Below, in pieces: positions 13,692 through 15,343 of a DNA stretch of 64,000 nt. The translations under genes were made by a program, and so were the position numbers. Source of the DNA: a marine bacterium B5-7 (GTDB lineage: Bacteria > Pseudomonadota > Gammaproteobacteria > BQJM01). Each line of letters opens with the position of its first letter. Positions within the stretch are counted from its first letter, which is position 1. The DNA is taken from positions 502 to 64,501 of the forward strand of contig BQJM01000004.1 in assembly GCA_021604705.1 (NCBI GenBank). The letters are read 5' to 3'. The notes beneath the pieces were generated by a model. That model made no database searches and was not told the origin of the DNA. It saw nothing but the letters and a program-made list of their open reading frames with translations.

Positions 13692-14687
13692 ATGTTGCAA
13701 GATACAGAAGATAAACCAGGTTTCTCGCTACAGGCACATCGTCGTTCGCTGGGCACTGCTGGGAGCTTGGCATCCCTCTTTTCAAACTGCTTTGGACATG
13801 AGCCTCGGCAGGGCGGTTTTAAGAGTGTAAGTCCCGATGTCTCGCCATATAAGGGTATTACTGCTGCGGACCGACAACTTTGGGGCGATTATCTGAATAA
13901 TAGAAATGCTCAGGCAATTCAGGCGATACTTGCTGCAAAAAAAATCCACCTCTTAACTCACGTTATTGGAGAGCCTGATAACCCGCTGGCGGGGCTTATG
14001 ACATTCAATGAATCAGGCTTTGGTAACATCATGTTGCATGACCGGATAGCGAATTCCCATGATGGTTCGGTGTTAAAATCAAAAAAAACCGAGGCTCAGA
14101 AAGTGGCGAGGAAAGAGGGGGATCATAGACCAGGGATAGACTTTCTTCTTGCTTATTATGAGCTTTTGAAGCAGGCCTGTGATGATAAATACGAAAAAGG
14201 CACTGTTCCTTATGTGACACGTAAGAACAGGGTTGACCTGGCCATTTATGCTCGGGATGTGATGGGGAAAACACCGTTGTTACTCGCATGTATGATGGCT
14301 AACCAGACATATGCATTGCGCTTATTAGCCTTAGATATGGATAAAAAAACGATAGACATCCCCCATACTTTGACAGGTTTTACGCCGCTACATGTTGCTT
14401 GTTTGTTTGGCTTGGATGAGGTCTATGACAAGTTAGTTGATATGGGTGCGAACACGGAACAGAAGGATAAGCGACTCGAGAAAACACCATCTGAAATCTT
14501 TTCTATGGATGAGAGTGAGGTAAAAGCGTTGACCTTAGAGATTTTAAATGCCCTTAACTTTTTCCATGGATATTATTTTTCCCTGGAGGATTCCGTGTCT
14601 GTCGTGGATACCCTGTACAGTAATCACTGTAAACTGTCCACGAAGCACACTCAGCCTCAGCAGCCAGTAGGTCGTTTAAGCTGCTAG
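13692..14687 (+). CDS. Ankyrin-repeat protein (candidate effector)
   Basis: 331 aa. Ankyrin repeats GKTPLLLACMMANQTYALRLLAL... and GFTPLHVACLFGLDEVYDKLVDMGANTEQKD. The last codons lie in a duplicated copy of the tpiA 5' region. Confidence 0.75.
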   Translation: MLQDTEDKPGFSLQAHRRSLGTAGSLASLFSNCFGHEPRQGGFKSVSPDVSPYKGITAADRQLWGDYLNNRNAQAIQAILAAKKIHLLTHVIGEPDNPLAGLMTFNESGFGNIMLHDRIANSHDGSVLKSKKTEAQKVARKEGDHRPGIDFLLAYYELLKQACDDKYEKGTVPYVTRKNRVDLAIYARDVMGKTPLLLACMMANQTYALRLLALDMDKKTIDIPHTLTGFTPLHVACLFGLDEVYDKLVDMGANTEQKDKRLEKTPSEIFSMDESEVKALTLEILNALNFFHGYYFSLEDSVSVVDTLYSNHCKLSTKHTQPQQPVGRLSC

Positions 14688-14738
14688 CCATATAAACGAG
14701 AGAGCAGCAGAAACGCGTAAACCATTAATCGCAGGTAA
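14672..14738. repeat. Left copy of an approximately 65-bp direct repeat (duplicate of the tpiA 5' region)
   Basis: aagctgctagccatataaacgagagagcagcagaaacgcgtaaaccattaatcgcaggtaa. The last 24 nt are identical to tpiA nt 3-26. Confidence 0.7.
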
Positions 14739-14815
14739 AACCAGCCCCATCTTTTATTTTGGGCTGGTCTTATTAGTATATCGACTATGATACGGTTTTA
14801 CTTGAGCTTGCAGGA

Positions 14816-15253
14816 GTGCTTGCTACGCATTTAATAGAGGAATACTTACAAACATGCGCATATAAATTTTCAGACTTGCAACGTTTAGGCTTTGTTCTGG
14901 AGTATATTCATGTAGACTTTGAGCTAACCCCATTAGAAAGAAGGATTGCTGATGCCTCACCAAAATATACGTTGCTTGTTCCAGATAAAATAAAAAAAAT
15001 AAAAGAAAAAAATAAACGGTGGCGCATTCTAGTGAATGAGTATATTCAGCTTGATGATATATGATTTTAGAAAAGGATATTATTGCGTGTTTACAAAGCG
15101 CAGGATCCGGTATTTTTACAAGATATTTATGCCTTAATTACACCAGATAAAGTTAGAAATCATGATGCAAATGACGCCTTTTATTTTCTGCGCCACCAAT
15201 TTTTACCTCTGCTGGAGGGCGCCCCCTGGAAGCTTACAGTGGATGCTAAGTAA
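14816..15253 (+). pseudogene. Decayed gene remnant: one reading frame interrupted by two stop codons
   Basis: The 82-aa ORF continues in-frame after tga-ttt-tag (15062-15070) for about 60 more codons (KRILLRVYKAQDPVFLQDIYALITPDKVRNHDANDAFYFLRHQFLPLLEGAPWKLTVDAK*). There is no plausible RBS at the GTG start. Confidence 0.45.
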
Positions 15254-15276
15254 TCCCCTTGAAAAAAAACAGCAAT

Positions 15277-15343
15277 CCGATAAGCTGCTAGCTATCTAAA
15301 ACGGAGGGCTAGCAGCAATGCGTAAACCATTAATCGCAGGTAA
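15277..15343. repeat. Right copy of the approximately 65-bp direct repeat (authentic tpiA 5' UTR, RBS and first 26 nt of CDS)
   Basis: aagctgctagctatctaaaacggagggctagcagcaatgcgtaaaccattaatcgcaggtaa. Confidence 0.7.

Follow-up and report, generated by a model that had tools for sequence, protein, structure and literature searches.

How did a second copy of the beginning of tpiA come to stand 605 bases upstream of the real start of that gene, at the very end of an ankyrin-repeat gene, and what do the two copies bracket? The question is raised by a 64-kb stretch of DNA (hereafter the window, i.e. the whole stretch that was analysed) belonging to a MAG of an uncultured, Coxiellaceae-like organism. 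The TpiA that it encodes and the NCBI protein listed for 'marine bacterium B5-7' agree at 100% identity, and a literature search on the organism's name returned no paper. The features on which the argument rests are listed below.

13221..15343, forward strand: whole rearranged interval, between a conserved 64-aa ORF and the real tpiA start; contains T1, the ankyrin gene, the dead stub, the T1 half, the abiEi remnant and the live tpiA leader
13594..13623, forward strand: T1, intact intrinsic terminator (GGGGCTGG-GTAA-CCAGCCCC then TTCTTTTATT); parent 1 of the joint
13692..14687, forward strand: ankyrin-repeat protein gene, 331 aa (Pfam Ank 3.9e-7, Ank_2 4.8e-7)
14677..14738, forward strand: left copy, tpiA 5'UTR and codons 1-9, predicted dead stub; ends in GGTAA (14734-14738)
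14735..14774, forward strand: new predicted hairpin, in which the T1 3' arm ACCAGCCC (14740-14747) pairs with GGGCTGGT (14761-14768)
14739..14758, forward strand: displaced T1 3' half, AACCAGCCCCATCTTTTATT, directly 3' of the stub
14792..15064, forward strand: 3' third of abiEi (type IV toxin-antitoxin antitoxin), natural stop at 15062-15064
15065..15280, forward strand: low-GC spacer, holding a 56-aa ORF (15083-15253) without homologues
15281..15343, forward strand: right copy, live tpiA leader; ATG at 15318, codons 1-9 to GGTAA (15339-15343)
15318..16067, forward strand: tpiA (triosephosphate isomerase), intact (Pfam TIM 2.2e-97, profile positions 1-244 of 245); parent 2 of the joint

The repeated start of tpiA

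Gapped local alignment of the two copies gave a direct, head-to-tail repeat, 62/63 nt long (14677-14738 versus 15281-15343), with a score of 45, while 500 shuffles produced a mean of 10.8 (sd 1.7) and a maximum of 19. Comparing the window with itself, a check named in a preliminary description of this DNA, recovered the same repeat as two adjoining blocks (14706-14738 versus 15311-15343 at 94%, and 14677-14705 versus 15281-15309 at 79%). That description had placed the copies at 14672-14738 and 15277-15343; the repeat itself stands, with left limits that had been set 4-5 nt early (similarity opens at TAAGCTGC). The last 24 nt of both copies are identical by alignment, just as had been claimed (14715-14738 and 15320-15343), and they form the only exact repeat pair of at least 20 nt at this locus. 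Their tpiA origin was likewise recognised correctly, although the exact span opens with the G of the start codon and closes with the second base of codon 9, rather than covering codons 1-9 in full. In content, a 5'UTR hairpin, a Shine-Dalgarno (SD) sequence and 8 2/3 codons of tpiA are duplicated. A sigma-70 scan of the repeat found no sigma-70-like promoter, which leaves the promoter in the earlier wording of a duplicated promoter-proximal region unsupported, and Rfam returned nothing at the locus but tRNA-Leu.

The two copies differ in what they could still do. The leader of the right copy folds into a predicted hairpin (GCTGCTAGC at 15284-15292 pairing with GCTAGCAGC at 15308-15316; -23.8 kcal/mol, z -3.6) that encloses the SD GGAGGG (15303-15308). 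The left copy has ACG (14713-14715) where tpiA has ATG, its SD is degraded to GAGAGA, and it reads as a non-functional stub of the tpiA leader and the first 8 2/3 codons. With the ACG changed to ATG, the stub is predicted to yield a 25-aa peptide, MRKPLIAGKTSPIFYFGLVLLVYRL.

The divergence between the copies is uneven. Upstream of the identical 24 nt, 8 of the 39 leader columns differ, and all 8 fall within ~27 nt around the SD and the start codon; the first 12 nt of the repeat and its last 24 nt are free of differences, and the terminator half that follows the left copy has 1 difference in 25 (8/39 versus 1/49 differences, Fisher p = 0.009). Such a pattern is not what a single neutral history predicts.

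The ankyrin gene closes with TTA AGC TGC TAG (14676-14687), and these last three sense codons and stop lie almost wholly within the left copy, which begins at 14677; the stop that had been noticed inside this copy is indeed there, as TAG at 14685-14687. The 3' end of the ankyrin gene is in this way made from a displaced tpiA leader. Ankyrin-repeat Dot/Icm effectors are defined by such repeats, by belonging to a named Legionella Ank family and by type IVB translocation; the ankyrin protein has the repeats and matches none of the named equivalogs, its score with the AnkQ model being 24 bits (cut-off 700).

The joint between tpiA and a terminator

Directly downstream of the left copy the sequence continues as half of an intrinsic terminator, T1, the intact form of which stands 1.1 kb upstream of the fused half. 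A terminator scan placed the T1 hairpin at 13594-13613, followed by a T tract, with an 8-bp stem of which 7 pairs are GC (fold energy -19.5 kcal/mol, z -3.3). The displaced half (14739-14758) is identical to 13604-13623 at 19 of 20 positions, and if GGTAAAA is included (14734-14758) it agrees at 24 of 25 positions with the T1 of a related genome (L084, in which the T1 loop reads GTAAAA), this being the sole such match in the 64 kb. We also considered whether the T1 half might belong to a family of dispersed repeats: CCAGCCCC occurs 5 times in the window and 3 of these occurrences are in T1 and its half copy, and since it is thus not a dispersed repeat, membership of such a family was rejected.

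The boundary between the stub and the T1 half is a novel joint, marked by a 5-nt GGTAA (14734-14738) that is common to tpiA codons 8-9 (15339-15343) and to the T1 loop (13601-13605). Both of its parents are intact, the left side corresponding to tpiA 15320-15343 and the right side to the T1 3' half at 13604-13623. The continuation into a terminator half and the microhomology at the junction had both been proposed from the letters alone, and both are real (T1 ...CTGGGTAA.. set against tpiA ..GCAGGTAA..). Considering that the joint fuses tpiA codon 9 to the upstream T1 loop, the whole interval from the terminator to the tpiA start is present in two head-to-tail versions. In its new surroundings the T1 3' arm takes part in another predicted hairpin (-16.6 kcal/mol, z -2.3; 4 of 200 shuffles fold as well), and this hairpin may serve the ankyrin gene as an improvised terminator.

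A joint of this kind invites the suspicion of an assembly or amplification artefact, that is, of a chimera formed between metagenome strains or by amplification. The window does come from a MAG, the joint itself is seen only in B5-7 data, and the Logan contig that also contains it may derive from the same read set. Against this, the second assembly (Logan, DRR328265) reproduces the sequence over both copies in a contig of 6157 bp, with 0 mismatches; with 5 nt shared at the joint and no exact repeat longer than 24 nt, the common sequence is too short for a k-mer graph misjoin; and the stub follows the ankyrin gene in another sample and another organism as well, in two assemblies (L084 and L085). 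Judging from the identical contig and the short shared sequences, an assembly misjoin appears unlikely, and an artefact of either sort strikes us as extremely improbable.

The segment between the copies

GC content falls to 37.5% across 14701-15300, versus ~45-50% in the flanks. A word-based homologue search with the whole 158-aa remnant encoded between the copies gave no match, and the AbiEi family was found only by an exhaustive HMMER search with a 95-aa piece. The remnant corresponds to positions 174-260 of the 260 in the PADLOC AbiEi model (the C-terminal 87 profile positions, E 4e-12), ~173 codons having been lost at the 5' end; full-length AbiEi homologues (267-272 aa) align with it only through their last ~90 aa, and tblastn with residues 182-272 of the AbiEi of genome L086 hit the locus with E 2e-17. 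What had been described as a decayed gene with two in-frame stops is, hence, a 5'-truncated abiEi with its natural stop (15062-15064) still in place; the ~215 nt beyond it have no detectable homology. The match to the AbiEi C-terminus and the 37.5% GC mark the remnant as foreign DNA.

The spacer downstream of it (15065-15280) had no Pfam or PADLOC match in any of the six frames. Its reading as a decayed abiEii was rejected as unsupported, since six-frame Pfam and PADLOC searches and tblastn with the L086 AbiEii all came back empty; the toxin gene abiEii is absent beside the remnant, with no signal of it in any of the frames. In the AbiE type IV toxin-antitoxin/abortive-infection system a full AbiEi of ~260-270 aa, which has a winged helix at its N-terminus, is encoded next to the nucleotidyltransferase AbiEii, and in a homologous locus abiEii follows abiEi with a 4-nt overlap. 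The segment resembles this system in encoding the AbiEi C-terminus, whereas it lacks the DNA-binding N-terminal part as well as the entire toxin gene, and we take the abiEi piece to be a dead remnant and not a working system. The two ORFs annotated in this segment, of 82 aa and 56 aa, are thus debris of a toxin-antitoxin module, not genes.

Scans with Pfam, NCBIfam and PADLOC detected no integrase, transposase or recombinase in the 540 bp or in the neighbouring ORFs scanned, and the 540 bp have no terminal inverted repeats (score 7 versus a shuffle mean of 7.5). The target-site duplication of a transposon or insertion sequence is typically 2-14 bp long and flanks terminal inverted repeats and a transposase; the repeat here is 62 nt long and accompanied by neither.

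Related genomes and the origin of the arrangement

Comparing the junction with related genomes, also among the checks named beforehand, gave a divided answer. The nearest syntenic relative, L082 (64% TpiA identity), has the order sbcB, 68-aa ORF, terminator, tpiA, secG, nuoA with nothing inserted, its terminator and ~55 nt leading straight to the tpiA ATG; the 64-aa ORF of the window is homologous to the 68-aa ORF (48% identity, E 3e-19). Relative to L082, the ankyrin gene and the abiEi remnant are insertions. A closer relative, L084 (from SRR7479631 / SAMN09406010), has an ankyrin homologue at 93% aa and 97.1% nt identity, and both L084 and L085 share the same ankyrin gene and the same ACG stub with the window, diverging after ..CCATTAAT, 9 nt before the window's joint. 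In L084 the stub is followed by unrelated sequence with an ORF. The cargo to the right of the stub differs, being an abiE remnant in the window and an unrelated ORF in L084.

This distribution suggests that the left copy is older than the B5-7 genome. As the ACG and the degraded SD occur in the window and in L084/L085, the stub would have been dead already in their common ancestor, or it was exchanged between them; and as the L084 stub ends 9 nt earlier, with unrelated sequence after it, at least one further rearrangement took place at this spot. The L084 tail (MDGAQIDAYKGYF...) was tried as the missing AbiEi N-terminus and as sequence from elsewhere in the window, and was rejected, showing similarity to neither. 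A TpiA search of genome contigs, dominated by the universal IAGNWKMH motif, yielded among the matches listed only relatives of at most 55% identity, and scans of JGI metagenome DNA for the stub/leader pattern and for T1 gave 0 matches. The inference that a palindromic repeat element is absent from another relative, L088, which had been drawn from a 150-nt gap, was withdrawn: the gap consists of Ns, marking a break in the scaffold, and the end of the element comes right after them.

The preliminary description had read the whole as an insertion/duplication scar, made when an island landed at the tpiA start. The insertion of cargo is borne out by the comparison with L082. The repeat is not a target-site duplication from such a landing; the joint connects tpiA codon 9 with the loop of the upstream terminator. 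In a more specific form of such a landing, the copies would be attL and attR of a decayed integrative abiE island, inserted in the first tpiA codons and bringing a replacement leader and start. Phage 21 and e14 replace the 3' end of icd, and such gene-end elements (these two in icd, and the islands in tRNA genes) duplicate a piece of their target, identical in its core and imperfect beyond it, and the gene stays intact while a displaced stub remains at the other junction. The locus fits this in its perfect 24-nt core with imperfect similarity on one flank, its low-GC segment, a cargo (defence/toxin-antitoxin module) typical of mobile islands, a homologue in L086 that adjoins CsrA-like and HTH genes, and a sequence to the right of the stub that differs in L084, as at a cassette site. 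It departs from it in that the 5' end of the gene is duplicated, not the 3' end, and in that the segment and its neighbourhood show neither an integrase or other recombinase nor any trace of one; the supposed element opens with the T1 3' half, a piece of the backbone terminator whose presence the att model leaves unexplained; the L084 stub stops 9 nt inside the supposed core, so that the crossover point is not the same and the boundary is not conserved in the related genome; and the JGI metagenomes gave no related empty or occupied sites. We consider an att origin unlikely. A broader version seems to us highly unlikely: it would make the first tpiA codons and the leader hairpin a hot spot of repeated recombination, at which one cargo replaces another behind a dead stub that stays the same. 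This would be a recombinase-dependent cassette/att site within the 5' end of an essential gene, and every incoming element would bring a leader and a start as replacements.

Instead, the left copy is probably the leftover of a microhomology-mediated illegitimate recombination that joined tpiA codon 9 to the T1 loop. Directly observed are the repeat, the intact parents, the joint, the microhomology, the identity of the remnant, the lack of both cargos in L082 and the occurrence of the stub in a second organism; the mechanism itself we infer. At the shared GGTAA, tpiA codon 9 (..GCAGGTAA) would have been joined to the T1 loop (..CTGGGTAA|AACCAGCCCC..), with two head-to-tail versions of 'T1 3' half, cargo, tpiA leader' as the outcome: unit 1 (13604-14738) would carry the ankyrin cargo and the dead stub at its end, and unit 2 (14739-15343) the foreign low-GC abiE remnant and the live tpiA start at its end. 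Since tpiA belongs to core glycolysis, an arrangement would persist only if one intact leader and start adjoin the gene body; in the redundant upstream stub, start codon and SD have both been lost. On this reading the structure is an ordinary scar of sloppy recombination, not a new kind of genetic element. Its value lies in annotation and in the reconstruction of genome history, as illegitimate recombination, rather than a recognisable mobile element, would have brought accessory genes into a conserved housekeeping block (dnaK...sbcB-tpiA-secG-nuo).

With the joints of microhomology-mediated (RecA-independent) tandem duplications and deletions the locus shares the head-to-tail copies, the fusion of a unit end to a unit beginning, the intact parents nearby, the 5-nt GGTAA at the crossover, the lack of mobile-element machinery, and a hairpin-forming terminator as one partner. 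Unlike in those joints, the divergence of the repeat is concentrated around the SD and the start codon, and the unit interiors (ankyrin versus abiEi remnant) are unrelated: the best local score between 13624-14676 and 14759-15280 is 20, within the shuffle range (max 22), i.e. no homology. A simple tandem duplication consequently needs extra steps, and further deletions or a two-allele origin must be assumed.

One way to supply such steps is to let an ~85-bp tandem duplication of the bare terminator-to-tpiA interval come first, with the GGTAA joint, and to have ankyrin and abiE inserted later and independently, each into its own unit but at one identical point, namely where the T tract borders on TAAGCTGC. 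The homology of the units does stop exactly at TTTTATT on the left and resume exactly at TAAGCTGC on the right, in both units, and only ~55 nt separate the L082 terminator from the tpiA ATG, which makes a bare unit of about this length plausible. This order of events requires, however, two independent insertions at an identical nucleotide without known insertion machinery; neither cargo is flanked by target-site duplications or inverted repeats, and deletion end points explain the homology boundaries equally well. We regard it as unlikely.

Under the favoured recombination at GGTAA, the two units could have arisen by an intragenomic tandem duplication followed by complementary deletions, by a secondary deletion between two older copies, or by the joining of two strain alleles through homology-facilitated illegitimate recombination (HFIR) after DNA uptake. 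HFIR during natural transformation has been described in Acinetobacter, Streptococcus pneumoniae and Pseudomonas stutzeri. By analogy, tpiA and the sequence downstream of it could be the homologous anchor, the other side joining at a microhomology of 3-10 nt, which would explain why the interval occurs as two tandem alleles whose cargo differs and whose leaders have diverged. It differs from the described cases in that DNA uptake and a donor allele would here have to be assumed, the sole hint of exchange being the identity between the window organism and the L084 organism, which is 97.2% at the ankyrin locus versus 96.1% at secG and 93.3% at nuoA. If true, this two-allele variant would suggest that related strains of such bacteria exchange DNA.

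A duplicated tpiA start joined to a terminator

The start of tpiA is present twice, as a degraded left copy (hereafter the stub) and as the live leader, in the following local arrangement.

Features of the locus (window numbering)
13221-13415, 64-aa ORF
13436-13577, long hairpin
13594-13623, intrinsic terminator T1
13692-14687, ankyrin ORF (Pfam Ank, 3.9e-7)
14677-14738, stub: dead tpiA leader and first codons
14777-15061, abiEi antitoxin remnant
15281-15343, live tpiA leader and first codons

The direct repeat, as proposed in the preliminary description, is real: two pieces recovered by the repeat search of the window (14706-14738 versus 15311-15343 at 94%; 14677-14705 versus 15281-15309 at 79%) were united by a gapped alignment (14677-14738 versus 15281-15343) with a score of 45, against 10.8 +/- 1.7 (maximum 19) for shuffles. 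Also as described, the final 24 nt are identical (beginning at the third base of the tpiA ATG, 15318-15320, and reaching into codon 9) and the ankyrin ORF stops (TAG) within the left copy. The stub has ACG (14713-14715) in place of the start codon, and GAGAGA as Shine-Dalgarno (SD) sequence versus GGAGGG in the live leader. The differences between the copies are concentrated in ~27 nt surrounding the SD and start codon (8 of 39 leader columns versus 1 of 49 columns across the T1 half and the identical 24 nt; Fisher p = 0.009), and could reflect selection to silence stub translation or, alternatively, allelic divergence of an unconstrained leader. With its ATG restored, the stub would encode a 25-aa hydrophobic peptide. 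By folding, the live leader forms a hairpin enclosing the SD (arms GCTGCTAGC/GCTAGCAGC; -23.8 kcal/mol, z -3.6), of which the stub version is weaker (-15.7 kcal/mol).

The terminator scan identified T1 as a canonical terminator (fold energy -19.5 kcal/mol), and its 3' half plus T tract recurs, as had been noticed, directly after the left copy (14739-14758, 19/20). Compared with the T1 of a relative (loop GTAAAA), this side of the joint matches at 24/25 positions, GGTAAAA included, which is the sole such match in the window; CCAGCCCC is not a dispersed repeat, judging by its occurrences in the window. The tpiA parent reads ..ATCGCAGGTAATTGG.., the T1 parent ..GGGGCTGGGTAA(AA)CCAGCCCC.. and the joint ..ATCGCAGGTAAAACCAGCCCC.., and both parents are still intact (T1 1.1 kb upstream, tpiA 0.6 kb downstream). 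Pairing of the displaced T1 3' arm with downstream GGGCTGGT yields an additional hairpin (-16.6 kcal/mol, z -2.3), which might terminate ankyrin transcription.

An assembly artefact, the misjoin raised in the preliminary description, is unlikely: a 6157-bp Logan contig from run DRR328265 (which may be the MAG's own data) is identical to 10386-16542 and spans both copies. With just 5 nt in common between the joint and its parents, and no exact repeat longer than 24 nt, a graph misjoin is implausible.

The antitoxin remnant and the relatives

The segment between the copies is low in GC (37.5%). Its open frame corresponds to the C-terminal third of AbiEi, an antitoxin, and matches positions 174-260 of the 260-position PADLOC AbiEi model (E 4e-12). 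Full-length homologues (267-272 aa, with Pfam AbiEi_1), recovered by an exhaustive HMMER search, align to it over their last ~90 residues only, and tblastn placed residues 182-272 of the AbiEi from contig L086 on 14792-15061. Because homologues share exactly the window's ending, ...W(H/R)ILVNE....D(E/D)(I/L)*, the stop at 15062-15064 is natural, not inactivating; what had been read as a gene with two in-frame stops is instead a 5'-truncated abiEi, lacking ~173 codons. In L086 abiEii comes next after abiEi, the two genes overlapping by 4 nt; within 15065-15280, Pfam and PADLOC profiles and tblastn detected no AbiEii or other signal in any frame. The L086 pair (138-3602), the closest full-length one found, adjoins a CsrA-like gene and HTH regulators, a layout that may resemble that of regulatory modules in Legionella integrative elements.

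The locus lies in a + strand housekeeping block (dnaK, dnaJ, greA, ftsJ, ftsH, glmM, then sbcB, tpiA, secG, tRNA-Leu, nuoA-N). The window is part of the MAG 'marine bacterium B5-7', whose TpiA in NCBI is 100% identical to that of the window. Among other public sequences the best TpiA match (P0002) reaches just 64% identity, and farther matches, among those listed, include Coxiellaceae MAGs. The nearest syntenic relative (L082/L083, 64% TpiA identity) keeps the order dnaK, dnaJ, greA, ftsJ, ftsH, glmM, carbonic anhydrase, 80-aa ORF, sbcB, 68-aa ORF, tpiA, secG, nuoA onward. Its 68-aa ORF is homologous to the 64-aa ORF of the window (48% identity, E 3e-19) and is separated from tpiA by nothing but a terminator and ~55 nt; the window's lineage has therefore gained the ankyrin gene and the abiE remnant by insertion. 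It has likewise gained the LRR/Ank gene (8123-9202; 359 aa) and the 761-aa ORF (9303-11588) upstream of sbcB. These two genes make up a second insertion of accessory, effector-like character in this block (8123-11588, between glmM and sbcB), at a position where L082 has the carbonic anhydrase and the 80-aa ORF; the 761-aa acidic protein had no family matches in profile searches.

A closer relative (L084/L085, the ENA and Logan assemblies of one other sample) shares the 3' end of the 64-aa ORF, long hairpin, T1, ankyrin gene and stub at 97.2% nucleotide identity; its stub has the same 5' boundary, the same ACG and an almost identical degraded SD. The stub is thus real biology of two organisms, dead before their separation or exchanged between them. 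The secG contig of the same sample (L088) matches the window at 96.1% over the tpiA 3' end, secG and tRNA-Leu, and at 93.3% in nuoA, so the ankyrin locus is slightly more similar than the backbone. After ...ACGCGTAAACCATTAAT, L084/L085 switch to GGATGGCGCTCAAATTG..., ~100 nt before the contig end and related to nothing in the window; the sequence right of the stub has been rearranged more than once. An ORF (MDGAQIDAYKGYFTLTTDREEDSPESTTAGMRY...; L084 1394-1494, L085 likewise) has its ATG exactly at the truncated stub end, in frame with the former stub start, and runs off the contig; it has no family match and no counterpart in the window.

Origin of the scar

The microhomology suspected earlier is correct, as GGTAA is common to T1 and tpiA and lies at the joint. 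The proposed island landing with target duplication needs correcting: at the joint, codon 9 of tpiA is fused to the loop of T1, presumably by a crossover within GGTAA. The layout is T1 5' arm / [T1 3' half, ankyrin, leader', GGTAA] / [T1 3' half, abiEi remnant, leader, GGTAA] / rest of tpiA, which is the topology of a head-to-tail duplication generated by illegitimate recombination at a microhomology, one of the two partners being a hairpin-forming terminator. Reading the copies as attL/attR ends of a decayed integrative island accommodates the 24-nt identical core and the defence-module cargo, but is weakened by an 'element' that begins with a T1 half, by an L084 stub that stops 9 nt inside the core and by the lack of a recombinase (no terminal inverted repeats, recombinase or transposase were found at the segment between the copies).

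The duplication topology leaves unexplained the clustered copy differences and the mismatch of the unit interiors (ankyrin and abiEi remnant are unrelated by local alignment against shuffles). It fits three histories: a unit with both cargos could have undergone a kilobase-scale tandem duplication and then complementary deletions; a secondary GGTAA deletion could have occurred between two older copies; or two strain alleles of the interval could have been joined, with homology in tpiA and beyond it downstream as the anchor (homology-facilitated illegitimate recombination). A short duplication of 85 bp, with two later insertions at one same nucleotide, is possible, but requires more coincidences. 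We regard the feature as an ordinary illegitimate-recombination scar beside an essential gene, with a dead toxin-antitoxin fragment, which helps annotation and locus history but does not constitute a novel type of system.

Ankyrin gene divergence and repeated elements

Between the ankyrin gene and its L084 counterpart (358-1353, 97.1% identical) 26 codons differ, 24 non-synonymously and 2 synonymously; the crude dN/dS, well above 1, suggests diversifying or relaxed selection on an effector-like protein. Non-coding DNA on its flanks is better conserved than the gene itself. The near-perfect long hairpin (142 nt, -62 kcal/mol, z -11), between the 64-aa ORF and T1, occurs once in the window, is ~99% conserved in L084, is absent from L082 and has no match in Rfam; it may represent a structured RNA or a small MITE.

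REP- or MITE-like palindromic repeats of ~87 nt (TGTCATCCCGCRCTTGAYGCGGGATCTCC ... GGAGATTCCGGCTCAAGGCCGGAATGACA) form a dispersed family with at least 14 copies in the 64 kb, nearly all between genes.

Positions of the ~87-nt palindromic repeats
2149-2248
4533-4614
7878-8016
16515-16601
19363-19426
19913-20012
23665-23915 (three tandem 87-nt units)
25453-25624
26213-26352
33423-33499
35927-36026
40167-40243
61967-62069

Among the spacers that they occupy are those of the nuo operon and the tRNA-Leu/nuoA spacer; at the latter, L088 shows a run of Ns (scaffold gap) and then the end of the element.
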